This document shows, one piece after another, positions 8,923-63,480 of a stretch of DNA of 64,000 nucleotides. Made by a program: the position numbers and the translations under genes. The stretch's first letter is position 1, and every line of letters starts with the position of its first letter. The notes under the pieces are model-generated. The model did no database searches. It saw nothing but the letters and a program-made list of their open reading frames with translations, and had not been told where the DNA came from. Source of the stretch: Eledone cirrhosa (lineage: Eukaryota); contig OZ024743.1 of the NCBI GenBank assembly GCA_964016885.1, forward strand, positions 161,696,001 through 161,760,000, written 5' to 3'.

Positions 8923-9053
8923 TATATATATGTACGTATAGGTTTACCGAACATTTATTATAATGTTCGGTTTGTTTGTAAACAAACAGCCCGAATTAAG
9001 CCGTACAGTGTTCGGCAACCATTGTTGCCCTTTTGTTCAACACTGACAAAGGA

Positions 9054-22585: not shown

Positions 22586-23118
22586 CTGCAGATGAGGAAG
22601 AGAAATGTCAAACATTATATATATATATATATATATATATATAGCTTAAAATGAAGTGACAATAAGAAGAAAGCAAGAACGGGGGGAGTTTTCCTCTCTG
22701 AGGGTCTCGGATATTTCCATGCTTTAAAGACAAGATATCTACCGCCCAGAGCGTTCAATAACTGAGTAAGTTATTGGGAAAATGGAGGAGGGAGGAGGGA
22801 AGGAAAATAGAAGGCAAAAGGGATCAGGAAGTTACAATGTAACAACTAAAATAAACAACACTCTTTTGCAATATATGCGTGTATATATATATATATATAG
22901 ATAAATCTACCAAAAGTTTACGGTAGTGTCCAATCCGTATGAAGAACTCAATGTAATCCGGATATCATGAAAAGAAGAGATGCATTCAAAAATCACTTTC
23001 GGTGAAAGATAAACGGAATACAGAGTCAAGATAAAATATTAAAAAAATAATGAATAAAACAAAGAAACAGTTCCTTATATTAAACAAAAAATATATATAT
23101 ATATATATATATATCCCA

Positions 23119-23401: not shown

Positions 23402-23410
23402 GTATATATA

Positions 23411-26171
23411 TCATCATCATCATCAACGTTTAACGTCCGTGTTCCACGCTTGCATGGGTTTGGACGGGGGTAGTCCCACTTGAGGCAAGAGTGATTGTCT
23501 TGCTCGCATAGGACTGTCTGGCAGGTTTTCTACAGTTGGATGCCCTTCCTAACACCAACCACATTTACAGTGTGGGTCTGGGAGGTTTTTACCGTGTTGC
23601 CTACACGGCCACATTACAGCGTGGACTGTGTGTTTTTTTGTCGTGACACCTACACGATCTCATTTGTTTCGGCCTTGATGGCGCGGCACCAACATAACTT
23701 TACATAGAACGGGGTGGTGTGGATGGGGTGGGGGTGGGGTTGGTGGGACGGGGTGTATTTTGTTAGAGATGCCTACTGGCTGGAGTAGGTTTTACTATAT
23801 ATTTAGGTAAGGCGGGTCTTCTCTGTTACTGAGTACCGCCAAAGGTCTCAGTCCAGTGACATTGTCTTGGAGAGGTGTAAGTGTGTGATGTCGGAGTTTA
23901 TCAGCTCGTCCCAGGTTTTTCTAGGTCTGCCTATTCCGTGACTACCGTCTATCTTTATTGCCCTGCACTTTGTTATACAGCTATCGACTTTCATGCGCAT
24001 CACGTGTCCATACCAACGTAGCCTTCTCTCGAGTAAACAACATCTGATCCCTCTTATCTCTAATTTTTTCCTTAGTTCGTTTATGCTTTGCCGTTCACGT
24101 ATATTACTGTTACACATCCAGCGGAGCATGCAAGCTTCGTTCCTCTCTAGTCTGCGTATATCCTCTGCACACAATGCCCAGGTCTCACTGCCATGCAGCA
24201 TTGCTGTTCGTATGCAGGCATCGTACAACCTGCCTTTCATTTTTAGTGAGAACCCTTTAGCAGCTAATAGTGGTATAAGCTCTCTGAACTTTTTCCAACC
24301 AGTTCTGACTCTAGCTACAGTACTTTCAGAGCACCCTCCCCCACTGCTGATTTTATCGCCCAGGTAACGGAAGCTGTCCACTATTTCTATAGAACCCTCT
24401 GCGCAATTGAAAGAGCTAGTAGTTTGTGGGCACTTGCTGCTACTTATTGCACCAGAGCACCGGCCACATGTAAAATCTATGTTCTTAGTTAGCTTACCTG
24501 TGATCCCACTACATCTTTTATGCACCCATACTTTGCATTTAGGACATAAAATGGAGTTTCTACCTACGCCTTTCCTACACACCGAGCACGACCATTTCCC
24601 AGAAGGGACCGCCGCCTTGTTTTCTTTCCTACAAACTAGTACTTTGGTCTTAGCCAGGTTAATTTTAAGTCCTTTTGACTCTAGGCCGTGCTTCCATGTT
24701 TGGAATTTCTTCTCTAGCTCGGCCATTGATTCCGCTATGAGTGTCAGGTCGTCTGCGTATAGGAGTTCCCATGGGCAGCCTGTCTTGAACTCCTCTGTTA
24801 TAGCCTGAAGGGCAATAATAAATAGTAGTGGGCTGAGAACAGAGCCCTGATGGACGCCAACTTTTACGCTAAACTCTTCACTATATTCGTTGTTAATTCT
24901 AATTCTAACCTTGCTGACTGTTTCTTTATACATGGCTTGTATAGCCCTCACAAGCCATTCGTCAACGCCTAGTTTTCTAAGAGCCCACCAGATAATGGAG
25001 CGGGGGACTCTGTCGAAGGCTTTCTCCAAGTCGACAAAAGCTAAGTAGAGGGGTTTACCTTTAGCTAGGTACTTCTCCTGTAGTTGTCGTACTATGAAAA
25101 GAGCGTCTGTGGTACTTTTGCCTGACACAAACCCAAACTGCATTTCATCTAGGTCAATTCTCTCTCTGATTAGTTGCGCTATTACTTTTTCCGTGACCTT
25201 CATGACCTGGTCGATTAATTTAATGCCTCTATAGTTACTCCTATCTAGGGCGTCTCCTTTACCCTTATAACAGTTAACGATGATGCTGCTATGCCAGTCC
25301 TTCGGAACAACCCCATTCTGTACGACTTGGTTAACTATGCGGGTGACCATGGTGTGTCCCACCGTGCCAGATGCCTTCAGCATCTCAGCAACTATTTCCG
25401 AAGGCCCAGCCGCCTTACCCGTCTTCATATCCTTGATTGCCTTACTTATTATACTCCCCTCGACTAACACTGCTGGTCCCTCTATTGGGTCGATATGGGG
25501 GAGACTGCCTTTCTCCCAATTATTCTCCTCATTTAGTAGCCTTTCATAGTGACACTTCCAAGCTACCTTCTTATCAGCGTCGGTGATGGCAAGTGTGCCA
25601 TCGTCGTTTAGTACACACTTCTCCCCGACAATATCACGGTTTTCCTTGACGCATTGCCTAGCAATCCTGAACACCTCACGTTTTTGGTCATCGCGTTGTA
25701 GAACATGCTTGAACTTTCTTTCCTCAGCTTCCCTTCTTGCTAAGTACACTTGTCTCCTAGCTTCCCTCCTGGCCACTTGATAGTCCTCTCTACTTCCCCC
25801 ATCCCGCCATACTTTCCAAGCCTGCTTTTTGGCCTTAATTGACCCCTCCACCTTACTGTTCCACCACCATGTTACTCTCCTCCTGCCTACAGGCCTGCTC
25901 CAGCCACAGACTTCGTCTGTCGCCAACAGCAGGTTTGCTTTCAGAAATTCCCACTCTCCCTCTATATTGTCCGACTCTAAATGTTCTTCCTTACTGTCGA
26001 AAGCATCAAGTAATATGCTTTGAAATTTATTCCTGGCTGTGGGGTCCTTTAGCTTCCATATTTTCCTCCTGAGGATAGTCTTCTTCTGTTGTCGAGTACG
26101 TCTCGTCCTGACTATGAGGTCGCTAATTATCAGTCTATGTTGGGAGGTGCATTCTTCATGGGGGAGGGATT
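23411..26171 (-). mobile_element. Young 5'-truncated RTE LINE (subfamily A')
   Basis: 692-aa ORF 23848-25926 with a complete RT domain, (CAT)n tail at 23411, and (TA)n on both sides. Confidence 0.95.
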
Positions 26172-27536
<1,365 letters not shown>

Positions 27537-27537
<1 letters not shown>

Positions 27538-28488
27538 CATCATCATCATCATCATCAACGTTTAACATCCGTGTTCCACGCTTGCATGGGTTTGGACGGG
27601 GGTAGTCCCACTTGAGGCAAGAGTGATTGTCTTGCTCGCATAGGACTGTCTGGCAGGTTTTCTACAGTTGGATGCCCTTCCTAACACCAACCACATTTAC
27701 AGTGTGGGTCTGGGAGGTTTTTACCGTGTTGCCTACACGGCCACATTACAGCGTGGACTGTGTGTTTTTTTGTCGTGACACCTACACGATCTCATTTGTT
27801 TCGGCCTCGATGGCGCGGCACCAACATAACTTTACATAGAACGGGGTGGTGTGGATCGGGTGAGGGTGGGGGTGGTGGGACGGGGTGTATTTTGTTAGAG
27901 ATGCCTACTGGCTGGAGTAGGTTTTACTATATATTTAGGTAAGGCGGGTCTTCTCTGTTACTGAGTACCGCCAAAGGTCTCGGTCCAGTGACATTGTCTT
28001 GGAGAGGTGTAAGTGTGTGATGTCGGAGTTTATCAGCTCGTCCCAGGTTTTTCTAGGTCTGCCTATTCCGTGACTACCGTCTATCTTTATTGCCCTGCAC
28101 TTTGTTATACAGCTATCGACTTTCATGCGCATCACGTGTCCATACCAACGTAGCCTTCTCTCGAGTAAACAACATCTGATCCCTCTTATCTCTAATTTTT
28201 TCCTTAGTTCGTTTATGCTTTGCCGTTCACGTATATTACTGTTACACATCCAGCGGAGCATGCAAGCTTCGTTCCTCTCTAGTCTGCGTATATCCTCTTC
28301 ACACAATGCCCAGGTCTCACTGCCATGCAGCATTGCTGTTCGTATGCAGGCATCGTACAACCTGCCTTTCATTTTTAGTGAGAACCCTTTAGCAGCTAAT
28401 AGTGGTATAAGCTCTCTGAACTTTTTCCAACCAGTTCTGACTCTAGCTACAGTACTTTCAGAGCACCCTCCCCCACTGCTGATTTTAT
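27537..28488 (-). mobile_element. 5'-truncated RTE LINE, near-identical to 23411-24358
   Basis: Same 3' UTR and C-terminus (…[16 protein letters not shown]), (CAT)n tail, flanked by TA tracts. Confidence 0.95.
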
Positions 28489-29797
<1,309 letters not shown>

Positions 29798-32700
29798 TCA
29801 TCATCATCATCATCATCATCATCACCGTTTTACGTCCGTTCTTCCACGCTAGCATGGGTTAGACGGGTTGTCCTGTTGTGGGCAGTGTCTGGTCGGCTGA
29901 CCATGCCTTGCTCATACAGGAACTGATCTGGCTTGATTTCTACAGCTGGATGCCCTTCCTAACACCAACCTCATTTACAGTGAGTGCTGGGTGCTTTTTC
30001 GTGGCGCCTACACGTCCACTTTACAGTGTGGGCTGGGTGCTTTTTTTGCCGTGACACCTCCACGACCACCTTGCGGTGGGGGGGGGGGGGGCATATTGTT
30101 TATATGCTTCAGCATGTACCCATGGGAGGTCGGGTACCCTGTATTACTGCGTGACGCCAGAAGTCACGGTCGTGTGTCATTGACTTTGAGAGGTGTAGTT
30201 GGGTAAGGTCGGCTTTTATCACCTCATCCCAAGTCATCTTGGGTCTCCCCACTCCGCGGTTTCCATCAACTTCTAGTGCTCTGCACCTTTTTATGCAGCT
30301 GTCATCCTTCATACGCATCACATGTCCATACCAGCGTAACCGCCTCTCCTGCACGCAGCATTTGATTCCTCTTATGCTCAGTCTCTCTCTCAATTCATTT
30401 ATGCTTTGTCGTTCACGTATATTACTGTTACACATCCATCGGAGCATGCAGGCTTCGTTTCTCTCTAATCTACGTAAGTCTTCCACCTTCAGCGCCCAGG
30501 TCTCACTACCATGCAACATCGCTGTTCGGATACACGCATCATACAGTCTGCCTTTCATTCTGAGGGAGAAGCCTTTTGCAGCTAGCAGTGGTAGTAGTTC
30601 CCTAAACTTCTTCCATCCCGTTCTTACCCTAGTTATTGTACTTTCTGAGCACCCACCTCCGTTGCTAATTCGGTCACCTAGGTAGCAGAAGCTGTCTACT
30701 GTTTCTACAGGGCCCTCCCAGAGATTGGTGGTACTTGTTTCCTGTGGCTGTTTGCTTGCTGTTTCAGCACAGCTGCTGCATGTGAATCCTACATTCTTAA
30801 TTAAGCTTCCTGAGATCCCGCTACATCTCTTGTGTACCCATTGTTTGCATTTGGGGCAAAGAATGGAGTTCCTACCTACACCTTTCCTACATACTGAGCA
30901 AGGCCATTTCCCTGAGGGGATCTGGGTTCTGTTTTCTCGTCTACTTATAAGGACCTTAGTCTTTGTCATGTTGACTTTGAGGCCCTTTCTCTCTAGTCCC
31001 TGCTTCCAGGTTTGGAATTTATTCTCTAGTTCTACCATAGATTCAGCTATGAGTGCAAGGTCATCAGCATACAGGAGTTCCCATGGGCATCCGGTCTTAA
31101 ACTCCTCCGTTATTGCCTGCAGGACTATGATGAACAGGAGAGGGCTAAGAACAGAGCCCTGGTGGACCCCAACCTGTACGCTAAATTCCTCGCTATACTC
31201 ATTGCCAATCCTAACTTTGCTGACTGCTCCCCTATACATGGCTTGTACCGCTTTCACAAGCCATTCATCTACTCCTAGTTTTCTAAGAGCCCACCAGATT
31301 ACTGCACGTGGAACTCTGTCAAAGGCTTTCTCAAGGTCGACAAATGCCAAGTAGAGTGGCTTACTTTTAGCTAGGTACTTTTCCTGTAATTGCCTCACAA
31401 GGAAGAGCGCATCAGTGGTGCCTTTCCCTGGAACAAACCCAAATTGCATCTCGTCTATATTCACCCGGTCCCTAATCAGCTGTGCTATAACTCTTTCTGT
31501 TACTTTCATGACCTGGTCCATCAACTTTATACCTCTATAGTTTCCTCTATCTAGTGCATCGCCTTTACCTTTGTAGCAGTTGACAATGATGCTACTGCAC
31601 CAATCTTTTGGTATGGCCCCCTCTAGTATTACCTGGTTAACGATACGTGTGGTTATAGTGTGACCTACAGACCCAGATGCCTTCAGCATCTCGGCAGCTA
31701 TACCCGATGGACCGGTTGCCTTCCCTATCTTCATATCTCTGATTGCCTTACTTACTACGCTGCCGCTGACTTGTACTGCTGGTCCCTCTATAGGGTCTAC
31801 GTGGGGTAGGGTCTCTTCTTCCCATGCATTCTCCTCATTTAGTAATCTATCATAATGACTCTTCCATGCATCTTTCTTCTCAGCACTTGTGAGGGCAAGC
31901 TCACCTTTATCATTCCGGATACACTTCTCTCCAATGACATCACAACTATCTCTGACACACTGCCTCGCAATCTTGAATACCTCCTGTTTCTGGTCCTCAC
32001 GTTGTAAAACATGCTTGAATTTTCTATCCTCTGCTTCCCTCCTAGCTAAGTATACTTGTCGCCTAGCTTCCCTCTTGGTCTCTATGTAATGTACCCTGCT
32101 CCCCCCGTTCTTCCATTCTTTCCATGCCTGTCTCTTGGCCTTGACTGCTTCATCTACCTTATTGTTCCACCACCAAGTCACTCTCCTCCTGCTTGAGGTC
32201 TTACTCCAGCCACAAACCTCATCCGTCGCCTCTAGTAAGTTATTTTTTAGGAACTCCCAGTTCTCTTCTACGTTAAATGTCTCTATCTGTTCTTCTTTAC
32301 TGTCGTAGGCGTTGAGTAAAATATCTTTAAATCTGTTACTGGTTGAGGGGACTTTCAGCTTCCAGATCTTTCTTCTCCAGGTTGGCCTCTGTTTCAGGGC
32401 TCGTCTAGTTCTGACCGTGAGGTCGCTGACAACTAAGCTATGTTGGGATGTACATTCCTCACTAGGGAAGGCTTTTGTGTTTACGACCGTCCATCTGTCA
32501 CGTCCTCTGATGAGGATAAAATCTAACTGACTAGAGTGCTCCCCTGATCTATAGGTGATCAGGTGGTTGTCGGGTTTTTTAAAGTTTGTGTTACATATCG
32601 ACATGTCATTGGCGTCGCAGAATTCTAGAAGTCTGAATCCTTCCTCATTCCTTGTGCCAACTCCATGGCCTCCATGTACTCTATTGAAGCCGTCGCAGTG

Positions 32701-33237
32701 TTTACCTACGTGTCCGTTAAAATCTCCTGCAATGATTAAGAAGTCCTTGTCGTCTGTTAGAGCAGTAGTGTGTATTAGGGACTCGTAAAACCTATCCTTA
32801 AGTTCGTCTGGCAGCCCCGATTGGGGTGCGTAAGCTGATATTATTGTGGTAATTGTCTTATTCAGGACTAGTCTGAGTTTAATGATTCTTGCATTTACCC
32901 TGTACACTGAGATTACTTTATCTACCCACTTGTCAGCTAATAGTATACCTACACCACCCATCCCATCGTCATTTCCCACCCAGAAAAATTTGTAGCACTG
33001 GCTTTTTCCTACAAGGACTCTAGCAGACCCTCCTCTCCATCTAGTCTCTTGCACACAGCATACATCAACTTCCTTTCGCTCTAGCATTTCTACGATTTCT
33101 CCTGCTCTTCCTTTCATTGAGCCTACATTGATGGTACCAACTCGGAGTTTTGGGCATTTGTCGACACTCGTAGGGGAGGGTCTCTGGGTTGGCGCTTCAC
33201 GTGGGTGCTTGGTAGCTCGCAGATGCATATTTCATAT
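29798..33237 (-). mobile_element. RTE LINE (subfamily B) with intact ORF, 3' UTR and (GAT)n tail; 5' UTR lost at a TA tract
   Basis: (CAT)n at 29798-29823, 3' UTR 29827-30108, uninterrupted ORF. Confidence 0.95.
30109..33228 (-). CDS. RTE ORF: APE endonuclease, reverse transcriptase and Cys/His finger (1039 aa)
   Basis: APE motifs [32 protein letters not shown] and TSQH. RT motifs [31 protein letters not shown] and YADD. Also CxxC..CxxC..HxxC..CxxC and RRLRWYGHV. No stops. Confidence 0.93.
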
Positions 33238-34535: not shown

Positions 34536-34615
<80 letters not shown>

Positions 34616-34618
<3 letters not shown>

Positions 34619-35114
34619 GAGGGTGACTTTGGACATCCTGCAGGACTAAAAATAAAACCTGTCACAGGGCAAAGGAGCTCTTAAGAGTCAATAGCCATCC
34701 AAAATAACCGGGAGAGATGACCCCTTAGCCCTTCAAGGCAGAATTCTAGAAGAAGGAAAACTCTGATATAACACCTGCAACCCTGATGGTATCCAATGAT
34801 GTTGACTTGTTCTTTTTTTTGCTAAATATCATCTTGGTTAAGAGAGTGGGACTGGCTTTGTGCAGTGCCTTTACTCACTATAAAAGCTTCACCGCACAGG
34901 CATTGCTTTATCTGGAGATCTCTCTGCACTTGTCGTCACATGGTACCATGGGCCCAGCACTACGTGTCAATAATTGTCACAAGTGTAGTGTTTGTACCAG
35001 AGTTTTCAAGTCGCTGGCTGAACTAAAAAGTCACACTCGTTCAGCGCATCGGTAGGGGTTCTCCTACATGGATATAAAGTAGTGGCCGTACTCGAAAACG
35101 AGTTGGCAGCCACC
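34616..35114 (+). mobile_element. Non-autonomous bipartite LINE derivative (RTE-like 5' UTR fused to a 3' end with a C2H2 finger remnant)
   Basis: Contains agaagaaggaaaactctgat (resembling an RTE 5' UTR) and ends in CSVC..FKSLAELKSHTRSAH* plus a short UTR. A second copy lies at 62885-63480. Confidence 0.65.
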
Positions 35115-35158
<44 letters not shown>

Positions 35159-35219
35159 ATATATATATATATATATGTGTGTATATATATGTGTGTGTAT
35201 ATATATATATATGTATATA

Positions 35220-36535
35220 CATGGTATGGACGATATTTGTTCGCAATTTTCAACTGCTAATTTTATGCAATTTTTTTTTACTTCCATTGTCACTCTTGTC
35301 TTCATGAAAACAGTGACTATATTTCCATTATTTATTTTAGGAATAATTGATTATGAATAATTTTGAACCTCCAAATTTGTGGAAGAGACACGGAGTTCTT
35401 CTTGGAATCCGCGCCAGGAGGACAAATAAGGACATTTCAGACTTTCTCAGTATCAGCAGGAGAATGGTGGAAAAGGTCAGAAAGGAATTGGAAGATTCAG
35501 GATTCGACTACGAAACAATATCAGAGAGGAAAACACATGATCGACGATCTGACGCCTTCAGAGCACCCGAGTTTGTCGCTGAAATTCAGGATATCATCAA
35601 CAATGAACCTAGCAAGTTGATGCGTGCCATTGCAAGGGAGAAAGGCGTGGATGAAAAGCTCATTAGGCTGGTGGTACATGAAGACATTCGCTACGTTTCA
35701 TACAAGATGAGGAAAGGACAATTTCTGTCAAAGGCGATGCAAGAGATGCAAGAAAAATGACTGAAGCACGCAAAGAAGCTGATCAACAAGTTGAAACACC
35801 CACTGGAGCCAGACATGCTGTGGTTTTTCTCCGACGAGAAAAACTTCTGCCAAGACCAGAAGATCAACTCCCAGAACAACAGGTGGCTCGCTGTCTCATC
35901 CAAAGACGTGCCCAGAGTCATGCAGACAAAGTTTCCAGCAACCACATTGGTCTTAGGTGTCGTCAGCAGTCAAGGTGACGTCATGCCACCTCACTTCTTC
36001 CCTGAGGGCCTCAAGCTGAACACCGATGGCTACATCCGCGTTCTGAGCGAGGTAGTAAAGCCCTGGATCGACCAGGTAGCTGCAGGTAGGCCATACGTGT
36101 GGCAGCAAGACTCAGCGCCCTGCCATACCAGGCAAAGGACCCAAGCCTGGCTGTCAGAGAACTTCGTCGACCACACTTCACCTGACATCTGGCCTCCCAG
36201 CTCGCCTGACTGCAACCCCCTCGGCTTCTTTGTGTGAGGCGCAGTGGAATGATACACCAACAGATCTAGCTGCAATACGAAAGACGATCTGAAGGCCAGG
36301 ATCACAAGTGCCTTTAGGGGCCTAAGTCGGGAGACAGTGACGAAGGCCTGTAGCCGGTTCCAAAGCCGTCTTGAGGCCGTCATCAAATCCAATGGCGGGG
36401 TTATCGAGTGAGATCGAAAGAACAAGTCATGAAGACAAACTGACCCAAGTTTGATAAATATATCTTAAAAAATAAAACTACTGTGTTATTTTTTCCTAGA
36501 CAGTCATCTTGCGAACAAATATCGTCCGCACCCTG
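35220..36535 (+). mobile_element. DD37D (maT) transposon, second inactive copy
   Basis: TIRs catggtatggacgatatttgttcgcaa and ttgcgaacaaatatcgtccgcaccctg, TA flanks. ORFs 35347-35760 and 35791-36237; third Asp mutated to Gly; stops present. Confidence 0.93.
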
Positions 36536-36547
36536 TATATATATGTG

Positions 36548-36618
<71 letters not shown>

Positions 36619-49454: not shown

Positions 49455-49496
49455 TATAAATTCACACCACATCTTGAAGAAACACAAAATATATAT

Positions 49497-50105
49497 TCCT
49501 TCCTAGATGCTCACTCCCCCTGTTGCAGACTGCGCATCAACAGGAGATATTCTTCTCCGCAAAGTTCGATCACCAACAGCAGAGTTTAGAGAGGAAAGGT
49601 CAAGTCCAGTCCATAAGTTGACAGCCAGCGTTTTGGCTGTCAACCCTCACTTCTCTTACCGGCTAACTTTCCTTCTAGGCATAACTTACTCACACCACAA
49701 GTTGATCTTTTGATATGACTATTCTGTTTAAGTACTCTTGACTTGATAATTGATGTGATTGGTTTAAGCTTGGTAATGTTAAGTAGCTCATTGATAAAGA
49801 TATGGTCCCTGGGTTGTGTGTTAGTCACAAGTCTCATGATATGGTTTTAGAATGTAGAGAGCTTCTGAAGTGACCTTATTGTCCAGTTGACACAATCAAG
49901 ACCATATAACACAACTTGTAGGATGTAAGTGTCAAAGATCATGGCCTTCAAATGATAAGAAACTCATTTTGATGTTAGCACTTCTTTGTTCCTGTTGAAA
50001 GCTACCTAACGTAGAGCGATGTGATACTGCACAGCGACCATACCATTGTTATTTGATGACAGCTTGTGATCGACATACAAACTCTGTAACTTGAGCAATT
50101 TGCTG
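49497..50105 (-). mobile_element. Old RTE-1-like LINE, 3' part of RT
   Basis: Minus strand reads QQIAQVTEFVY..HKLS..AFNRNKEVL..LEGKLAGKRSEG..PKRW. It continues seamlessly from 56814-56928. Confidence 0.75.
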
Positions 50106-51399
50106 ATATGATACTATCTGCAGAGGCATAAAAGAGGTATCTAAAGAGATTTTATCTAAGGAAAGCCTTTCCATTCCACAGTGGATGTCACAACAAACAA
50201 ACAAAGCAATATTTGAAAAACATAGAATCAGAAGAAAATGTGGGCATACATCAACCAAATATAGAATAGTGAAGGCTAAATCCAAGAAACTTGTTAAATC
50301 AGACAAACTTAAGCAAATGTACAACATTGAGGAGCTGAATAACCTTCCTCCCCTCAAGTTATATCATGCTGTTTTGAAGAAACTAAAGACTAAATCAAGA
50401 AAGCTTAGGTGGGTTATCAAAGATTCAAATTGTGCTATTCTCACTAGCAATGATGATATCCATGGACGCTGGGCCAAATTCTATGATGAACTGTACTTCA
50501 GCAACTCAGATTTGACATCAGATGTTATTTCACCTAACTTAACTAGTGAGATATCTCATACCATCAACAATTTGAAGCAAGTAAAAAGCCCTGGACTTGA
50601 CAACATACACTCAGAATTTATCAAAGCTGGAGGTGAACCACTTATCAAAGCACTTCAACATCTTAACTCTATTATCACTGCAGGAAAAAGCCTAGACATG
50701 TTCAAGAAAGCATTGATAGTTGTACTCTACAAAAAAGTTAACAGACTTGATTGTGGGAACTATCATCCTATCAGCCTACTGAGTCATGTTTACAAGCTTT
50801 TCATGAGTATCTTTGCAGCATGAGTGAAATCAGACCTTTATGCCTCATTTCCCGAAACACAAGCTGTGTATCAACCTGGAAGAGGCACCATTGCATAGAT
50901 CCAAGCTATGGAATATATCATTGAGAAATCAATAGAATTCAACAACCCTGTGTACATCACTTTCATTGACTTCACAAAAGCTTTTGACAATGTGAAACTA
51001 CCCAGCTTATGGCAACTCTTAAACAAAACCTCAATTAACAAGAAATACATCAACCTACTTAAAGAAACTTACACCAACTCAACAGCAAATATCAAAACAG
51101 ATCTGGGAACTACGCAGTGTATCTTGAAGGGAAGTAAGCAGGGGGGTGTACTATCAGCACTTCTTTTCTGTATAGTTATAGCTGTACTTATCTACCAAAC
51201 TGAAGAAGAATGTTCCTCTGGCTATCAAATAGGAGGTCAAATCCTATCAAATCTTAGCTATGCAGACAATCTGACCATCATGAGTTACTCTAGAATTGAT
51301 CTGCAAAACTTTCTCAATGTACTGGCCAAACATGCACAAGGGGTTGCTTACGCATCAACATCTCCAAAACGAAGTGTATGACAACTGATAAAAATAATG
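50106..51399 (+). mobile_element. Same RTE-1-like LINE, linker plus RT core, in opposite orientation
   Basis: ORFs 50185-50823 (KSPGLDNI, NYHPISLLSHVYKLF) and 50908-51381 (FIDFTKAFD, KQGGVLS, SYADN). Confidence 0.85.
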
Positions 51400-54300
51400 T
51401 ACACGTGTGTGTATTCATATGCATACTAGTATTTCAGTATACATATGTGGATGTACATTTTTAACTTAATTGTTTAAGCGTCAGTCATACAAAAGTGAGT
51501 TACAAACGAAACGAAATTTAATTTCGTTTCGTTATTTGTTTTTATCGTCTCCGTTGAACCGGTACGTACTCACGCTCTATGCAAATTGGTCTGCCCACTA
51601 CTAATTTTCATAGAAAAAGCATATAACGATATGTGCTTTCACGATTCTCTAGAGAAGCCGGAAGATAGGTAAATATTGCTGATGAGATGTAACAACATCG
51701 AAACTAGTCCAATATTCCTTGTCTGGCTTTCTGGAGAATAGAGGAAAGGTGTTTCCTCAAAAACCAGTATGACTCTAAGAACCGGTTTGTCTGTGTGTCT
51801 ACATACGGAATAGCTGGACACTCACAGTAAAGTGACCAGTGAAAACTCGGTACATCTACATATGTACACGTGTGTGTATTCATATGCATACTAGTATTTC
51901 AGTATACATATGTGGATGTACATTTTTAACTTAATTGTTTAAGCGTCAGTCATACAAAAGTGAGTTACAAACGAAACGAAATTTAATTTCGTTTCGTTAT
52001 TTGTTTTTATCGTCTCCGTTGAACCGGTACGTACTCACGCTCTATGCAAATTGGTCTGCCCACTACTAATTTTCATAGAAAAAGCATATAACGATATGTG
52101 CTTTCACGATTCTCTAGAGAAGCCGGAAGATAGGTAAATATTGCTGATGAGATGTAACAACATCGAAACTAGTCCAATATTCCTTGTCTGGCTTTCTGGA
52201 GAATAGAGGAAAGGTGTTTCCTCAAAAACCAGTATGACTCTAAGAACCGGTTTGTCTGTGTGTCTACATACGGAATAGCTGGACACTCACAGTAAAGTGA
52301 CCAGTGAAAACTCGGTACATCTACATATGTACACGTGTGTGTATTCATATGCATACTAGTATTTCAGTATACATATGTGGATGTACATTTTTAACTTAAT
52401 TGTTTAAGCGTCAGTCATACAAAAGTGAGTTACAAACGAAACGAAATTTAATTTCGTTTCGTTATTTGTTTTTATCGTCTCCGTTGAACCGGTACGTACT
52501 CACGCTCTATGCAAATTGGTCTGCCCACTACTAATTTTCATAGAAAAAGCATATAACGATATGTGCTTTCACGATTCTCTAGAGAAGCCGGAAGATAGGT
52601 AAATATTGCTGATGAGATGTAACAACATCGAAACTAGTCCAATATTCCTTGTCTGGCTTTCTGGAGAATAGAGGAAAGGTGTTTCCTCAAAAACCAGTAT
52701 GACTCTAAGAACCGGTTTGTCTGTGTGTCTACATACGGAATAGCTGGACACTCACAGTAAAGTGACCAGTGAAAACTCGGTACATCTACATATGTACACG
52801 TGTGTGTATTCATATGCATACTAGTATTTCAGTATACATATGTGGATGTACATTTTTAACTTAATTGTTTAAGCGTCAGTCATACAAAAGTGAGTTACAA
52901 ACGAAACGAAATTTAATTTCGTTTCGTTATTTGTTTTTATCGTCTCCGTTGAACCGGTACGTACTCACGCTCTATGCAAATTGGTCTGCCCACTACTAAT
53001 TTTCATAGAAAAAGCATATAACGATATGTGCTTTCACGATTCTCTAGAGAAGCCGGAAGATAGGTAAATATTGCTGATGAGATGTAACAACATCGAAACT
53101 AGTCCAATATTCCTTGTCTGGCTTTCTGGAGAATAGAGGAAAGGTGTTTCCTCAAAAACCAGTATGACTCTAAGAACCGGTTTGTCTGTGTGTCTACATA
53201 CGGAATAGCTGGACACTCACAGTAAAGTGACCAGTGAAAACTCGGTACATCTACATATGTACACGTGTGTGTATTCATATGCATACTAGTATTTCAGTAT
53301 ACATATGTGGATGTACATTTTTAACTTAATTGTTTAAGCGTCAGTCATACAAAAGTGAGTTACAAACGAAACGAAATTTAATTTCGTTTCGTTATTTGTT
53401 TTTATCGTCTCCGTTGAACCGGTACGTACTCACGCTCTATGCAAATTGGTCTGCCCACTACTAATTTTCATAGAAAAAGCATATAACGATATGTGCTTTC
53501 ACGATTCTCTAGAGAAGCCGGAAGATAGGTAAATATTGCTGATGAGATGTAACAACATCGAAACTAGTCCAATATTCCTTGTCTGGCTTTCTGGAGAATA
53601 GAGGAAAGGTGTTTCCTCAAAAACCAGTATGACTCTAAGAACCGGTTTGTCTGTGTGTCTACATACGGAATAGCTGGACACTCACAGTAAAGTGACCAGT
53701 GAAAACTCGGTACATCTACATATGTACACGTGTGTGTATTCATATGCATACTAGTATTTCAGTATACATATGTGGATGTACATTTTTAACTTAATTGTTT
53801 AAGCGTCAGTCATACAAAAGTGAGTTACAAACGAAACGAAATTTAATTTCGTTTCGTTATTTGTTTTTATCGTCTCCGTTGAACCGGTACGTACTCACGC
53901 TCTATGCAAATTGGTCTGCCCACTACTAATTTTCATAGAAAAAGCATATAACGATATGTGCTTTCACGATTCTCTAGAGAAGCCGGAAGATAGGTAAATA
54001 TTGCTGATGAGATGTAACAACATCGAAACTAGTCCAATATTCCTTGTCTGGCTTTCTGGAGAATAGAGGAAAGGTGTTTCCTCAAAAACCAGTATGACTC
54101 TAAGAACCGGTTTGTCTGTGTGTCTACATACGGAATAGCTGGACACTCACAGTAAAGTGACCAGTGAAAACTCGGTACATCTACATATGTACACGTGTGT
54201 GTATTCATATGCATACTAGTATTTCAGTATACATATGTGGATGTACATTTTTAACTTAATTGTTTAAGCGTCAGTCATACAAAAGTGAGTTACAAACGAA

Positions 54301-56580
54301 ACGAAATTTAATTTCGTTTCGTTATTTGTTTTTATCGTCTCCGTTGAACCGGTACGTACTCACGCTCTATGCAAATTGGTCTGCCCACTACTAATTTTCA
54401 TAGAAAAAGCATATAACGATATGTGCTTTCACGATTCTCTAGAGAAGCCGGAAGATAGGTAAATATTGCTGATGAGATGTAACAACATCGAAACTAGTCC
54501 AATATTCCTTGTCTGGCTTTCTGGAGAATAGAGGAAAGGTGTTTCCTCAAAAACCAGTATGACTCTAAGAACCGGTTTGTCTGTGTGTCTACATACGGAA
54601 TAGCTGGACACTCACAGTAAAGTGACCAGTGAAAACTCGGTACATCTACATATGTACACGTGTGTGTATTCATATGCATACTAGTATTTCAGTATACATA
54701 TGTGGATGTACATTTTTAACTTAATTGTTTAAGCGTCAGTCATACAAAAGTGAGTTACAAACGAAACGAAATTTAATTTCGTTTCGTTATTTGTTTTTAT
54801 CGTCTCCGTTGAACCGGTACGTACTCACGCTCTATGCAAATTGGTCTGCCCACTACTAATTTTCATAGAAAAAGCATATAACGATATGTGCTTTCACGAT
54901 TCTCTAGAGAAGCCGGAAGATAGGTAAATATTGCTGATGAGATGTAACAACATCGAAACTAGTCCAATATTCCTTGTCTGGCTTTCTGGAGAATAGAGGA
55001 AAGGTGTTTCCTCAAAAACCAGTATGACTCTAAGAACCGGTTTGTCTGTGTGTCTACATACGGAATAGCTGGACACTCACAGTAAAGTGACCAGTGAAAA
55101 CTCGGTACATCTACATATGTACACGTGTGTGTATTCATATGCATACTAGTATTTCAGTATACATATGTGGATGTACATTTTTAACTTAATTGTTTAAGCG
55201 TCAGTCATACAAAAGTGAGTTACAAACGAAACGAAATTTAATTTCGTTTCGTTATTTGTTTTTATCGTCTCCGTTGAACCGGTACGTACTCACGCTCTAT
55301 GCAAATTGGTCTGCCCACTACTAATTTTCATAGAAAAAGCATATAACGATATGTGCTTTCACGATTCTCTAGAGAAGCCGGAAGATAGGTAAATATTGCT
55401 GATGAGATGTAACAACATCGAAACTAGTCCAATATTCCTTGTCTGGCTTTCTGGAGAATAGAGGAAAGGTGTTTCCTCAAAAACCAGTATGACTCTAAGA
55501 ACCGGTTTGTCTGTGTGTCTACATACGGAATAGCTGGACACTCACAGTAAAGTGACCAGTGAAAACTCGGTACATCTACATATGTACACGTGTGTGTATT
55601 CATATGCATACTAGTATTTCAGTATACATATGTGGATGTACATTTTTAACTTAATTGTTTAAGCGTCAGTCATACAAAAGTGAGTTACAAACGAAACGAA
55701 ATTTAATTTCGTTTCGTTATTTGTTTTTATCGTCTCCGTTGAACCGGTACGTACTCACGCTCTATGCAAATTGGTCTGCCCACTACTAATTTTCATAGAA
55801 AAAGCATATAACGATATGTGCTTTCACGATTCTCTAGAGAAGCCGGAAGATAGGTAAATATTGCTGATGAGATGTAACAACATCGAAACTAGTCCAATAT
55901 TCCTTGTCTGGCTTTCTGGAGAATAGAGGAAAGGTGTTTCCTCAAAAACCAGTATGACTCTAAGAACCGGTTTGTCTGTGTGTCTACATACGGAATAGCT
56001 GGACACTCACAGTAAAGTGACCAGTGAAAACTCGGTACATCTACATATGTACACGTGTGTGTATTCATATGCATACTAGTATTTCAGTATACATATGTGG
56101 ATGTACATTTTTAACTTAATTGTTTAAGCGTCAGTCATACAAAAGTGAGTTACAAACGAAACGAAATTTAATTTCGTTTCGTTATTTGTTTTTATCGTCT
56201 CCGTTGAACCGGTACGTACTCACGCTCTATGCAAATTGGTCTGCCCACTACTAATTTTCATAGAAAAAGCATATAACGATATGTGCTTTCACGATTCTCT
56301 AGAGAAGCCGGAAGATAGGTAAATATTGCTGATGAGATGTAACAACATCGAAACTAGTCCAATATTCCTTGTCTGGCTTTCTGGAGAATAGAGGAAAGGT
56401 GTTTCCTCAAAAACCAGTATGACTCTAAGAACCGGTTTGTCTGTGTGTCTACATACGGAATAGCTGGACACTCACAGTAAAGTGACCAGTGAAAACTCGG
56501 TACATCTACATATGTACACGTGTGTGTATTCATATGCATACTAGTATTTCAGTATACATATGTGGATGTACATTTTTAAC

Positions 56581-56586
<6 letters not shown>
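51397..56586 (+). repeat. Tandem array of 11 x 465-bp units plus 75 bp, each with a hammerhead ribozyme (candidate non-LTR retrozyme multimer)
   Basis: Exact 465-bp period (51397, 51862 ...). Units appear identical by eye, and identical short ORFs recur 11 times in the ORF track. Confidence 0.97.
51672..51716 (+). ncRNA. Canonical minimal type I hammerhead ribozyme (first of 11, repeating every 465 bp to 56322-56366)
   Basis: Stem I AATATTG/CAATATT, core CTGATGA, stem II GATG-taacaa-CATC, GAAA, palindromic stem III ACTAGT, GUC triplet. Predicted cut after 51709. Confidence 0.92.
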
Positions 56587-56622
<36 letters not shown>

Positions 56623-56656
56623 TATATAAATATAAATATATATATATATAATATAT

Positions 56657-56742
<86 letters not shown>

Positions 56743-56776
56743 ATATATTATATATATATATATTTATATTTATATA

Positions 56777-56811
<35 letters not shown>

Positions 56812-56813
56812 CT

Positions 56814-56928
56814 TTTGCTGGTTGTAGATTGTGAGTTGGAGATTGGCATTATTTTTATCAGTTGTCATACACTTCGTTTTGGAGATGTTGATGCGTAAGC
56901 AACCCCTCTTGTGCATGTTTGGCCAGTA
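56814..56928 (-). mobile_element. RTE-1-like LINE fragment, inverted duplicate of 51320-51399 plus about 33 further nt
   Basis: Minus strand reads LRINISKTKCMTTDKNNANLQLTIYNQQ. Differs from the plus copy by a 2-nt indel. Confidence 0.85.
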
Positions 56929-56979
56929 TATAAATATATATATATATATAATATATATATATATAAATATATATATATA

Positions 56980-57070
<91 letters not shown>

Positions 57071-57080
57071 AATATATAAT

Positions 57081-57114
<34 letters not shown>

Positions 57115-57194
57115 ATATATATATATAATATATATATATAATATATATATATAATATATATATATATAATATATATATATAATATATATATATA

Positions 57195-57282
<88 letters not shown>

Positions 57283-57290
57283 TATATAAA

Positions 57291-57392
<102 letters not shown>

Positions 57393-57810
57393 ATATAATT
57401 AATATATATATATAATATATATATATATAATATATATATATATAATATATATATATATATATAATATATATATATAATATATATATATATAATATATATA
57501 TATATATATAATATATATATATAATATATATATATATAATATATATATATAATATATATATATATATATAATTAATATATATATATATATATATAATATA
57601 TAATATATATATATAATATATATATATATATAATATATATATATAATATATATATATAATATATATATATAATATATATATATAATATATATAATATATA
57701 TATATATATATAATATATATATATAATATATATATATAATATATATATATATATATAATATATATATATATAATATACATATATAATATATATATATATA
57801 TAATATATAT

Positions 57811-57844
<34 letters not shown>

Positions 57845-57901
57845 ATATATATATATATAATATACATATATAATATATATATATATATATATAATATATA
57901 T

Positions 57902-57935
<34 letters not shown>

Positions 57936-58030
57936 ATATATATATATATATATAATATACATATATAATATATATATATAATATACATATAATATATATA
58001 TATAATATATATATATAATATATATATAAT

Positions 58031-58062
<32 letters not shown>

Positions 58063-58064
58063 AT

Positions 58065-58123
<59 letters not shown>

Positions 58124-58125
58124 AT

Positions 58126-58159
<34 letters not shown>

Positions 58160-58178
58160 ATATATATATATATATATA

Positions 58179-58217
<39 letters not shown>

Positions 58218-58236
58218 TATATAATATATATATATA

Positions 58237-58285
<49 letters not shown>

Positions 58286-58291
58286 TATATA

Positions 58292-58491
58292 NNNNNNNNN
58301 NNNNNNNNNNNNNNNNNNNNNNNNNNNNNNNNNNNNNNNNNNNNNNNNNNNNNNNNNNNNNNNNNNNNNNNNNNNNNNNNNNNNNNNNNNNNNNNNNNNN
58401 NNNNNNNNNNNNNNNNNNNNNNNNNNNNNNNNNNNNNNNNNNNNNNNNNNNNNNNNNNNNNNNNNNNNNNNNNNNNNNNNNNNNNNNNNNN
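58292..58491. other. Assembly gap (200 N)
   Basis: Run of N inside the TA tract. Confidence 0.99.
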
Positions 58492-58711
58492 AATATAATA
58501 TATATATATATATATATAATATATATATATAATATATATATATATATATAATATATAATATATATATATATATATATAATATATATATATAATATATATA
58601 TATAATATATATATATAATATAATATATATATATAATATATATATATAATATATATATATAATATATATATATATATAATATATATATATAATATAATAT
58701 ATATATATAAT

Positions 58712-58745
<34 letters not shown>

Positions 58746-58768
58746 AAATATATATATATATATATAAA

Positions 58769-58800
<32 letters not shown>

Positions 58801-58840
58801 TATATAAATATATATATATATAAAATATATATATAAATAT

Positions 58841-58876
<36 letters not shown>

Positions 58877-58889
58877 ATATATATATAAT

Positions 58890-58948
<59 letters not shown>

Positions 58949-58963
58949 AAATATATATATAAA

Positions 58964-59071
<108 letters not shown>

Positions 59072-59104
59072 ATATATAATATATATATATAATATATATA
59101 TAAT

Positions 59105-59136
<32 letters not shown>

Positions 59137-59137
59137 A

Positions 59138-59201
<64 letters not shown>

Positions 59202-59231
59202 ATATATAATATATATATATATATATAATTA

Positions 59232-59263
<32 letters not shown>

Positions 59264-59364
59264 CATATATAATATATATATATATAATATATATATATAA
59301 TATATATATATATATATAATATATATATATAATATATATATATAATATATATATATATATATAA

Positions 59365-59974
59365 TCATCATCATCATCATCATCATCATCAACGTTTAAC
59401 GTCCGTGTTCCACGCTTGCATGGGTTTGGACGGGGGTAGTCCCACTTGAGGCAAGAGTGATTGTCTTGCTCGCATAGGACTGTCTGGCAGGTTTTCTACA
59501 GTTGGATGCCCTTCCTAACACCAACCACATTTACAGTGTGGGTCTGGGAGGTTTTTACCGTGTTGCCTACACAGCCACATTACAGCGTGGACTGTGTGTT
59601 TTTTTGTCGTGACACCTACACGATCTCATTTGTTTCGGCCTCGATGGCGCGGCACCAACATAACTTTACATAGAACGGGGTGGTGTGGATGGAGTGGGGG
59701 CGGGGGTGGTGGGACGGGGTGTATTTTGTTAGAGATGCCTACTGGCTGGAGTAGGTTTTACTATATATTTAGGTAAGGCGGGTCTTCTCTGTTACTGAGT
59801 ACCGCCAAAGGTCTCGGTCCAGTGACATTGTCTTGGAGAGGTGTAAGTGTGTGATGTCGGAGTTTATCAGCTCGTCCCAGGTTTTTCTAGGTCTGCCTAT
59901 TCCGTGACTACCGTCTATCTTTATTGCCCTGCACTTTGTTATACAGCTATCGACTTTCATGCGCATCACGTGTC
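59365..59974 (-). mobile_element. 5'-truncated RTE, near-identical to the 23411 and 27537 copies
   Basis: Same 3' UTR and C-terminus, (CAT)n tail, TA flanks. Confidence 0.93.
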
Positions 59975-60006
59975 ATATATATATATATATAATATACATA
60001 TATAAT

Positions 60007-60989: not shown

Positions 60990-61173
60990 AATATATATAT
61001 ATAAATATATATATATAAATATATGTAGATAAATCTACCAAGAGTTTACGGTAGTGTCCATCCGTATGAAGAACTCAATGTATTCCGGATATCATGGAAA
61101 GATATATAAATATATATATATAAATATATATATATATAAATATATATGTATATAAATATATATATATATAAAT

Positions 61174-61802: not shown

Positions 61803-61812
61803 AATATATATA

Positions 61813-62243
61813 TACGATATTAAATAAATGGAAACTATATTTATAAAACCATATATTTCAGGGATATCATATTTCAGGGATATCATATTAAAAATATGGT
61901 ATGCCTTCATCAGACAAAATACAATATAAACAGTCTTATAAATAGATAGATTTGACATACCTTACTTCCATTTAAAAAGTTGAATCAACTTTTTAAATGG
62001 AAGTTGAAGTGTAAGGTATGTCAAATCTATCTATTTATAAGACTGTTTATATTGTATTTTGTCTGATGAAGGCATACCATATTTTTAATATGATATCCCT
62101 GAAATATATATAATGAAATAAATATGGTTTTATAAATATAGTTTCCATTTATTTAATATCGTAAATATACTCCAAATACTTGAGTGCTTTTATATCAGTT
62201 ATAAATATTTACTCGTTGTAATCCAACAATTTAAATAAAACTT

Positions 62244-62619: not shown

Positions 62620-62819
62620 TATCGAGAATCGGAACCTCGGCCCACGAAATAACGAAACACAATCTTCGAAATGTGTGGCAAAGTGCTCAATAGTTTGGAT
62701 AAACCAGAGCTATAACTAACGTTTAAATACCAACACACTGAGACAATGCTTAAACAATCACTCGCACAGCCGAAAAACGCGACCAAGAGAATTCGGGTCA
62801 GACAAATAAAAATATATAT

Positions 62820-62884
<65 letters not shown>

Positions 62885-62885
<1 letters not shown>

Positions 62886-63480
62886 GTGGCTGCCAACTTG
62901 TTTTCGAGTACGGCCACTACTTTATATCCATGTAGGAGAACCCCTACCGATGCGTGTGACTTTGTAGTCCAGCCAGCGACTTGAAAACTCTGGTACAAAC
63001 ACTACACTTGCGACAATTATTGACACATAGTGCTGGGTCCATGGTACCATGTGACGACAAGTGCAGAGAGATCTCCAGATATAAAGCAATGCCTGTGCCG
63101 TGAAGCTTTTATAGTGAGCAAAGGGACTGCACAAAGCCAGTCCCACTCTCTTAACCAAGATGATATTTACCAAAAAGAAGAACAGGTCAACATCATTGGA
63201 TACCATCAGGGTTGCAGGTGTTATATCAGAGTTTTCCTTCTAGAATTCTGCCTTGACAAAGGCTAAGGGGTCATTTCTCCCGGTTATTTTGGATGGCCAT
63301 TGTCTCTTAAGAGCTCCTTTGCCCTTTGACAGGTTTTGTTTTTAGTCCTGCAGGATGTCCAAAATCACCCTCCTCACCAAGAAACCTTGGTGGGGTTGCC
63401 AGTTTAGTAGCCAACGACCCGACCATGAGACTGGTTGTACGAGGATACATGTTACCAGTAGCACCAACTGGTGACCTGAC
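62885..63480 (-). mobile_element. Second, more complete copy of the bipartite LINE derivative
   Basis: Reverse-complement match to 34616-35114, plus about 105 nt of extra 5' sequence. Confidence 0.7.

Follow-up and report, generated by a model that had tools for sequence, protein, structure and literature searches.

Composition of the locus

Between 49485 and 58291 of the window (the whole 64-kb stretch of DNA analysed), pieces of a decayed LINE, an array of short tandem units and a TA tract adjoin one another as follows. Pieces C and B at the right-hand side are together called the island.

49485..49496, no strand: candidate left copy of the LINE target-site duplication, 12 bp (CAAAA then TATATAT), matching minus-strand 56805-56817 beside the island end with one extra base
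49497..50105, minus strand: piece D, the 3' portion of an RTE-like, decayed LINE, running to the stop codon of the ORF (49503-49505) and a few bases of tail
50099..50105 (also 56814-56820), no strand: TTTGCTG, 7-nt overlap of pieces D and C, LINE coding sequence in both copies
50106..51319, plus strand: piece A, the 5' portion of this LINE in inverted orientation, aa 364 onward of the homolog P0006, with 2 in-frame stops
51320..51399, plus strand: piece B, original copy, 80 nt, its terminal ATG common to the array
51397..56586, plus strand: array assigned by its sequence to the non-LTR retrozymes, 11 units of 465 nt plus 75 nt, in place of 35 nt of the left arm
51672..51717, plus strand: predicted type I hammerhead ribozyme in unit 1, with cleavage predicted after position 51709, recurring every 465 nt in 11 copies
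56588..56697, plus strand: left arm of the TA hairpin, original tract in A-run polarity, 110-nt exact reverse complement of 56702-56811
56698..56701, no strand: hairpin loop of 4 nt, fold-back point, at the sixth A-run
56702..56813, minus strand: right arm of the TA hairpin in T-run polarity, including 2 nt formerly between the LINE end and the tract
56814..56846, minus strand: piece C, 33 nt including the 7-mer, surviving in the fold-back copy alone
56847..56928, minus strand: piece B, fold-back copy, 82 nt, meeting the downstream TA tract via a 2-nt TA microhomology
56929..58291, plus strand: downstream TA tract in original polarity, reaching the assembly gap (58292-58491)

Four of 18 sequencing runs (X1, X2, X4 and X6) were compared with 49460-51861 at 88% likeness. 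X1 and X2 come from one sample, possibly the source of the assembly, so they are not independent support.

A 5'-inverted, decayed LINE

Aligned with the 1014-aa homolog P0006, the plus-strand piece (50116-51348) corresponds to aa 364-784, the minus-strand island (56898-56815) to aa 785-812, and piece D to aa 820-1010 (50080-49515, minus strand; tblastn). The minus-strand reading frame that the sequence-only reading had drawn from 56928-56814 into 50105-49497 is confirmed by the last two of these matches. One contig each in X1 and X2 extends from 50105 into island sequence (piece C), which indicates that the frame is continuous in the LINE family. Piece D contains four in-frame stops in 152 codons and one frameshift, and its ORF end is similar to the C-termini of the homologs. 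Piece A encodes an RVT_1 domain (E 9e-15), and a blastn search found no second copy of its 1214 nt in the 64-kb window; to the right of the island, too, none exists within the window, the gap sequence being unseen. No Pfam family was matched by P0001. Among the homologs, endonuclease and RT domains share a single ORF of ~1000-1020 aa. This architecture (a single endonuclease-RT ORF and a very short 3' end) fits the RTE clade, and the LINE is here called RTE-like.

The source of the plus-strand piece is an old, decayed LINE that is 5'-inverted in the geometry of twin priming, the mechanism presumably behind it. Its inverted part adjoins the 3' part in element order and has its outer end at the inversion point, where the two overlap by 7 nt, and the end of piece C shares 4 nt with the target flank (49485-49488). 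TTTGCTG is present at both places where the sequence-only reading had located it; it is LINE-internal sequence at the inversion point, however, and not a target-site duplication. The candidate 12-bp duplication is suggestive only, because it is imperfect by one extra base and AT-rich, and its right copy is visible only via the mirror copy described below. In the available text of PMC4245944, RTE target-site duplications peak at 10-12 bp; the candidate, with its extra base, fits this peak, which is in keeping with twin priming. According to the same text, 5' inversions were seen with L1 in human cells and otherwise in a single Nimb-2 insert, and this near-restriction counts against the twin-priming reading.

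The hammerhead array

The array consists of 11.2 copies with a period of 465 nt and shows no difference across 5190 nt (11 units plus 75 nt). It overlaps piece B by the 3-nt ATG, as had been described from the letters. The hammerhead was recognised by Rfam (HH9, E 1.3e-7, 38.9 bits, under the gathering score of 52), its core is complete in 11 of 11 full units, and stems I and II are predicted. The monomer has a GC content of 0.37 and a fold z of -10.1 (0 of 100 shuffles), and it is non-coding, with a sole ORF of 40 aa or more (61 aa, minus strand). Judged by these features, the array is a type I hammerhead non-LTR retrozyme with predicted self-cleavage. A Helitron-like repeat had also been considered and was dropped, as the hammerhead accounts for the unit. 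No other hammerhead was found in 1-49500 at E 0.01, and the 46 Rfam-type matches there were all to microRNA models below their gathering scores.

Both ends of the array (51397, and 51471 in unit coordinates) differ from the predicted ribozyme cut site at 51709. Since the hammerhead lies on the plus strand, the cDNA of the array would run from the TA end. As to its footprint, the 3' end of the array lies where the TA tract begins, the 5' end shows a 3-nt microhomology, 35 nt of the target are deleted and there is no target-site duplication. Alternatively, an insertion of 1.16 units may have expanded locally into the 11 identical units, or assembly may have smoothed them.

In X1 and X2, under the same species label, the retrozyme family is abundant and divergent, with many variants and with ends in other flanks; contig depth summed over the unit is 1.7e5-5.7e5 in these runs, depth not being copy number. 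Family contigs that end in (TA)n at 51545 number at least 12 in X1 and at least six in X2, and at least five more in X2 do so at 51476. As other family copies also end in (TA)n, the array was likely reverse-transcribed into the start of the TA tract. The window's own variant at 51640 has a residual depth of 47 in X1, about eight times that of a locus-identical contig, and of 0 in X2, values that do not fix its copy number. Organism B (X4) gave partial coverage of the unit, and no orthologous locus was found in that run.

The TA hairpin and its fold-back copy

The TA tract beside the array is present as had been reported, but it is no simple tail: it forms a perfect 110-bp hairpin with a 4-nt loop, and its right half belongs with the island. 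Five A-runs are mirrored by five T-runs of equal lengths and gaps, for which the chance is ~2e-8, calculated from the run and gap frequencies of 295 interruptions in neighbouring tracts (T-runs, 7 of 295). The best exact match of the mirrored 84-nt stretch elsewhere in the window is 46 nt. The 227-nt segment 56702-56928, which holds half of the TA tract plus the island, is the neighbouring DNA on the left copied by fold-back, and the 2-nt microhomology at 56928/56929 forms the second junction, restoring the orientation as in foldback inversions. That adjacent target DNA was copied by fold-back had been one proposal of the sequence-only reading; the hairpin supports it, although 227 nt were copied and not the 1.3-kb plus-strand piece. 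The latter is an upstream part of the same LINE, as stated there, but is the original rather than an inverted copy, with 80 nt duplicated and 1214 nt single.

The copying ran from the left into the island, because the left arm continues into the single-copy 1214 nt of piece A and has the A-run polarity of the downstream tract (AA 180 versus TT 4 over 56929-59364). A reading of the island as the flipped half of an 82-bp direct duplication was rejected, since the mirrored A-runs point to a fold-back. Piece C is contained in the mirror copy and was absent left of the array in a search of the window; the strand bearing the array therefore did not serve as template. The copy retains the 35 nt that the array replaced, and the fold-back therefore came before or with the array; a fold-back after it was rejected, as the array would have been copied instead of piece C.

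The LINE and its duplicated part differ in age. Six stops in 562 codons correspond to a decay of ~10% (95% range 3.6-21%), and this LINE copy differs by 9.3% (66 of 712 letters) from five long family contigs in X1. The two copies of piece B (51320-51399 and the island) are identical at 80 of 80 positions apart from one 2-nt indel, with 0 substitutions against at least 5.7 expected at the age of the LINE (P 0.003 or less). The inversion of the LINE, decayed by ~4-21%, must therefore be much older than the fold-back. One base present in family contigs of X1, X2, X4 and X6 is missing from both copies, which thus descend from this decayed genomic copy.

Order of events and rival readings

We consider it somewhat probable (about 0.6) that the decayed 5'-inverted LINE, the 227-nt mirror copy and the hammerhead array reflect three successive events at one TA microsatellite; three layers, each of a known kind, are likely, rather than one exotic insertion. 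In an old step, of which the geometry remains, an RTE-like LINE would have been inserted by twin priming, so that minus-strand D met plus-strand A-B-C at a 7-nt overlap and the tract followed C on the right. In a recent step, of which the hairpin remains, the top strand may have broken after ~112 nt of the tract and paired with itself through the TA repeats; synthesis would then have returned through the tract, C and B before the end was joined to the tract on the right by the 2-nt microhomology. In a third step, also recent and, if the assembly is correct, not earlier than the second, a reverse transcriptase would have been primed at the first TA run. The enzyme would likely have come from a Penelope-like element. 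The template would have been a circular or multimeric retrozyme RNA, copied for more than one turn and possibly for all 11.2, and the cDNA would then have annealed to the ATG that closes piece B, with deletion of 35 nt. The break-prone palindrome probably opened the site to the array.

The 2-nt indel between the B copies, which occurs while six TA run lengths are identical, fits a copying error or a second haplotype as well as elapsed time, and counts against these three steps. With the inversion of the LINE still older, the fold-back and the array might instead belong to one repair event, which we regard as unlikely. A break in the TA tract would have given the top-strand hairpin extension, with bottom-strand fill-in from the right stalling at the hairpin base (again an unlikely course); improbably to a similar extent, the free TA end would have primed 11.2 turns on one retrozyme circle, the cDNA annealing at the ATG and skipping C. 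Such an event would suit the near absence of age in either layer (5190 nt of array without a difference; TA arms matching at 110 of 110 positions) and an array that begins within one TA unit of the first base of the tract. It would suit, too, the purified Penelope-like protein that, according to the accessible part of PMC11167929, cut and extended both strands at AT-rich sites and started reverse transcription without homology. However, the family meets (TA)n elsewhere with recurring 3' ends and thus does not require a fold-back, one indel separates the B copies, and homogenised palindrome arms can hide age. In the boldest version, which we likewise hold to be doubtful, the locus would be a single-molecule record of rolling-circle reverse transcription: one rare-variant circle would have been copied through 11.2 turns in a single pass that began at a fixed internal point, into a TA break under fold-back repair.

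Rather less probable still is an assembly mosaic, in which the island and the right TA arm derive from a fold-back chimeric long read of an array-free haplotype, which the TA tract allowed to be merged with the array haplotype. Chimeric reads of this kind arise readily at long TA palindromes, and the assembly gap is only 1.4 kb from the island. Contigs identical to the locus have depths of 6.0 and 3.45 versus 6-14 for the other X1 and X2 pieces listed; one X1 contig that covers piece A shows 9 differing letters and 39 gaps, which would suit a second allele, and one indel in 82 nt fits an allelic difference. In the comparison with 49460-51861, where family copies dominate, the rows listed (15 of 44 joints, 24 of 786 loose ends, 40 of 205 letter rows and 32 of 6667 pieces) contain none of the D/A, B/array and island junctions, nor any other junction specific to the locus; this and the nearby gap also count against the three steps. 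A chimera, on the other hand, requires two strand switches in one molecule, the TA arms are exact over six run lengths, which is unlikely for alleles ~2% apart, and a read from the array allele could not provide piece C. Very improbable is the single 6.7-kb insert of the sequence-only reading (6708 nt as drawn; LINE piece, array and TA tail), placed into a 5'-truncated LINE with duplication of TTTGCTG, or its variant in which LINE machinery copied the circle and the LINE RNA in one twin-primed reaction. The 7-mer at both ends, the continuous minus-strand frame, the like cDNA polarity of the array and A-B, and the 3-nt microhomology speak for it. Yet the supposed insert encloses the only copy of piece A and the template of the mirror, leaves unexplained the 110-bp mirror that ties half of the supposed tail to the island, needs a chance landing of the LINE piece within 35 nt of its own continuation, and combines LINE pieces bearing six stops with an array and a duplicate free of substitutions. 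The other proposal made there, a twin-primed 5'-inverted LINE later struck by the array, is supported, with the two as separate layers. The inversion is no footprint of the arrival of the array, since the 7-mer is LINE-internal, the plus-strand piece is original and the right half of the TA tract is tied to the island.

Comparison with known systems

Among titles and opening parts of abstracts, in a literature that left most subscription journals outside its scope, no description of retrozyme insertion junctions or of this arrangement was found. The available portions of PMC7229834 and bioRxiv 10.64898/2026.07.22.740005 describe metazoan non-LTR retrozymes that resemble the present array in their head-to-tail units, each with a type I hammerhead, a GC content under 50%, a strongly self-paired monomer and a large dispersed family. 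The 465-nt unit exceeds the 170-400 nt given in the former text and lies inside the 51-972 nt given in the latter. The 35-nt deletion without target-site duplication distinguishes the present array. For the spread of retrozymes, these texts propose circular RNA and a borrowed reverse transcriptase. Proposals for integration are that Penelope-like machinery reverse-transcribes the circles or that arrays grow locally through unequal crossover. With a very young array whose ends are readable, with a rare variant that is shared and with 3' junctions that recur in (TA)n, the question of integration can be tested in a population. If the single-pass reading were true, animal retrozyme arrays would be born full length at (TA)n breaks and not grown by unequal crossover.

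The LINE layer, which is uninformative on retrozyme integration, agrees with twin-primed 5'-inverted L1, as far as the text available of PMC2912911 and PMC4245944 describes it, in having the 3' part in one orientation and the adjoining upstream part inverted, a short stretch of overlap where the orientation switches, microhomology to the target site and a candidate 12-bp duplication. The element itself is not L1-like, its homologs being single ORFs of ~1000-1020 aa. A 5' inversion in an RTE-like family outside mammals would be a modest side result, if other copies confirm it. With foldback inversions via single-stranded hairpins (PMC7467729, in its accessible sections) the mirror copy shares a short-loop hairpin at the inversion centre and a second, stabilising junction; it differs in comprising only 227 nt, in being primed in a self-complementary TA microsatellite and in returning to the same tract by a 2-nt microhomology.

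Penelope-like elements, in the portions available of PMC11167929 and bioRxiv 10.1101/2021.04.23.441226, are alike in their type I hammerhead, tandem copies, (TA)n targets (in the Naiad clade) and two preferred 3' ends. The locus, in contrast, has no PLE ORF. At the present locus the DNA found inverted is that of the target, on the 3' side, whereas in Penelope-like elements, as described there, it is a truncated element copy at the 5' side, and the two 3'-end classes are ~70 nt apart here versus 30-40 in those elements.

Organization of the locus

Long TA tracts run through the window, whose DNA is rich in AT and of animal type, and the locus studied here combines three known kinds of event. 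Its features, with the pieces of a tentatively RTE-like LINE, are as follows.

50106-51319, plus strand: LINE piece A, single copy within the window
51320-51399, plus strand: LINE piece B, after A and before C in LINE order
56814-56846, minus strand: LINE piece C (33 nt), between B and D in LINE order, present here only
50105-49497, minus strand: LINE piece D, last in LINE order
51397-56586, plus strand: array of 11 full 465-nt retrozyme units plus 75 nt

Across the window the order is D (reversed), A, B, the array, a TA tract, C (reversed), B (reversed), a TA tract and a gap. In P0006, the 1014-aa homolog used as the LINE reference, amino acids 364-784 are covered by the plus-strand stretch 50116-51348, 785-812 by the minus-strand island (C with the second copy of B) and 820-1010 by the minus-strand left piece; TTTGCTG occurs at 50099-50105 and 56814-56820. 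These 7-mer positions and the matches of all three LINE pieces agree with the coordinates of the sequence-only reading, which were correct. The assembly does contain the structure, and in a more exact form than had been noted there.

A fold-back copy in the TA tract

The TA tract has the structure of a hairpin: its two arms, 56588-56697 and 56702-56811, are exact reverse complements and enclose a 4-nt loop. On its left side, A-runs of 4, 3, 3, 2 and 3 interrupt the tract with gaps of 9, 3, 13 and 17, and on its right side T-runs and gaps equal to these follow in mirror order. The chance of such a mirrored series is about 2 × 10-8 (from 295 interruptions in neighbouring tracts, of which seven are T-runs), and its best match elsewhere within the window is 46 nt. 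Because the arms mirror each other exactly, 56702-56928 is a single inverted copy, 227 nt long, comprising the tract's first 110 nt, the two bases linking the tract to C, C itself and B. The template was the left arm, since it runs on into A and shares the polarity of the downstream tract (AA 180 versus TT 4), which the copy rejoins via a 2-nt TA microhomology. Among the LINE pieces, the duplication is limited to B, whose copies are identical at 80 of 80 bases besides one 2-nt indel. The earlier suggestion of a fold-back that copied neighbouring DNA holds for these 227 nt, but not for the 1.3-kb plus-strand LINE piece.

Short islands in TA tracts are not confined to the array site, as 61025-61101 (77 nt, 95% like 22898-22974) exemplifies. 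A near-perfect, MITE-like palindrome of about 360 nt (61807-62163, 92% self-complementary) also lies inside TA tracts.

The inverted LINE

Once C is put back from its mirror copy, the element consists of reversed D followed by A-B-C, with TTTGCTG as the overlap where the orientation switches. At the end of C, four bases match the flank at 49485-49488, and 49485-49496 is found again beside C with one extra base; this recurrence is suggestive of a target-site duplication. In the LINE homologs, a single ORF of about 1000-1020 aa encodes both an endonuclease and an RT domain, and the ORF of the LINE stops a few bases short of the element end.

Among the joints listed from the sequencing runs compared with this region, one same-strand joint in run X4 (49719 to 51300, on an inverted reference) and one in run X2 (49911 to 51277, judged by linking letters resembling plus-strand A) suggest further 5'-inverted copies of the family. 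Another X4 joint, between opposite strands, has the look of a simple deletion; two other X2 joints are of unspecified kind. More distant LINE fragments (30928-33066, 14845-17070, 24616-26145 and shorter pieces) are about 22-32% identical to these homologs at the amino-acid level.

From six in-frame stops in 562 codons, decay is estimated at about 10% (95% range 3.6-21%), and the window's copy differs by 9.3% from five long family contigs of run X1; the LINE is old. If the B copies were of LINE age, at least 5.7 differing sites would be expected, and 0 were observed (P ≤ 0.003). At 51340-51346 both are short of one base that is present in family contigs from each of the four runs compared, so both descend from the window's decayed copy. 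One X1 contig over 50227-50664 (nine differences, 39 gaps, depth 6) may represent the second allele, or else a close paralog of the window's LINE copy.

The retrozyme array

Every unit carries a plus-strand type I hammerhead (Rfam HH9, E-value = 1.3 × 10-7; 38.9 bits, under the gathering threshold of 52) with minimal stem III and a predicted cut after 51709; the core is complete in all 11 full units. The monomer (fold z = -10.1) has a 61-aa antisense ORF only. In X1 and X2, which are one sample and possibly the source of the assembly, the family reaches great abundance and diversity and shows the head-to-tail unit joint; at 51640, 51779 and 51799 the window's unit carries the minority variant. 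Among the 24 of 786 loose ends listed, units run into (TA)n at 51545 in at least 12 contigs of X1 and at least six of X2, and at 51476 in at least five of X2; the window's array ends at the equivalent of 51471. A near-perfect hairpin (about 51504-51534) lies between these recurring 3'-end classes (51471-51545).

Since neither array end coincides with the ribozyme cut site, the array was copied from a template exceeding a single cut monomer in length, either a circle or an uncut multimer. With plus-strand RNA, cDNA synthesis would have started on the TA side, using no more than 1-2 nt of homology, and finished at the ATG.

Other repeats were also noted. A 600-nt element starting with (ATC)n has three copies with 99% identity (59364-59978, directly after a TA tract, 27536-28140 and 23410-24008) and older ones with 79-88%. 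Dispersed repeats in opposite orientation (about 92% identity) pair 35202-36558 with 7609-8940, and 62812-63376 with 34615-35190.

History of the locus

The fold-back copy retains 35 nt, C plus the two linking bases, whose left-hand counterpart gave way to the array. Had the fold-back come later, the array would be in the copy; the fold-back was therefore earlier or simultaneous. The array shows 0 differences in 5190 nt and the LINE is decayed, so the array and the LINE inversion differ greatly in age, unless the LINE's RNA template was a dead copy. Contrary to what had been supposed, the inverted LINE is thus no footprint of the array's arrival.

In the most likely history (probability about 0.6), an old, twin-primed LINE insertion would have been followed by a recent fold-back in the adjoining tract, and the retrozyme would then have inserted at the tract start, within one arm of an unstable palindrome. 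A fold-back and retrozyme insertion coupled in one repair event, to which a simultaneous order would correspond, is a less likely alternative. Slightly less probable still is that the island arose in assembly, as a mosaic made with a chimeric read from the second haplotype; this stays a rival because no junction was found among the joints (15 of 44) and loose ends (24 of 786) listed from the reads, there is a gap at a distance of 1.4 kb, and the depths of contigs give a hint of two alleles. The single insert of the sequence-only reading, bounded by TTTGCTG as a 7-bp duplication, is very improbable, failing on both the TA mirror and the age difference.

Comparison with known systems

What remains of value is a retrozyme array that is very young and whose junctions can be read, in a family whose copies tend to end in (TA)n; together they offer a test of rolling-circle insertion versus local expansion. 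The restored LINE matches the twin-priming geometry described for L1 in PMC2912911. Its candidate duplication is near the 10-12 bp length peak given for RTE elements (PMC4245944, PMC6007223), where the only 5' inversions described (in PMC4245944) involve one Nimb-2 insert and L1 in human cells. In general, such inversions are reported mainly for mammalian L1. The 227-nt copy has the form of the short-loop foldback inversion described in PMC7467729. The array fits the non-LTR retrozymes described in PMC7229834 and bioRxiv 10.64898/2026.07.22.740005, where Penelope-like elements are proposed as helpers; we propose that such elements may have served the window's array too. Naiad elements favour (TA)n (10.1101/2021.04.23.441226), and a purified lizard element cut both strands at AT-rich sites and started internally without homology (PMC11167929). 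The two 3'-end classes of the retrozyme family are loosely reminiscent of the pair of start sites that a Penelope-like element is reported to use.
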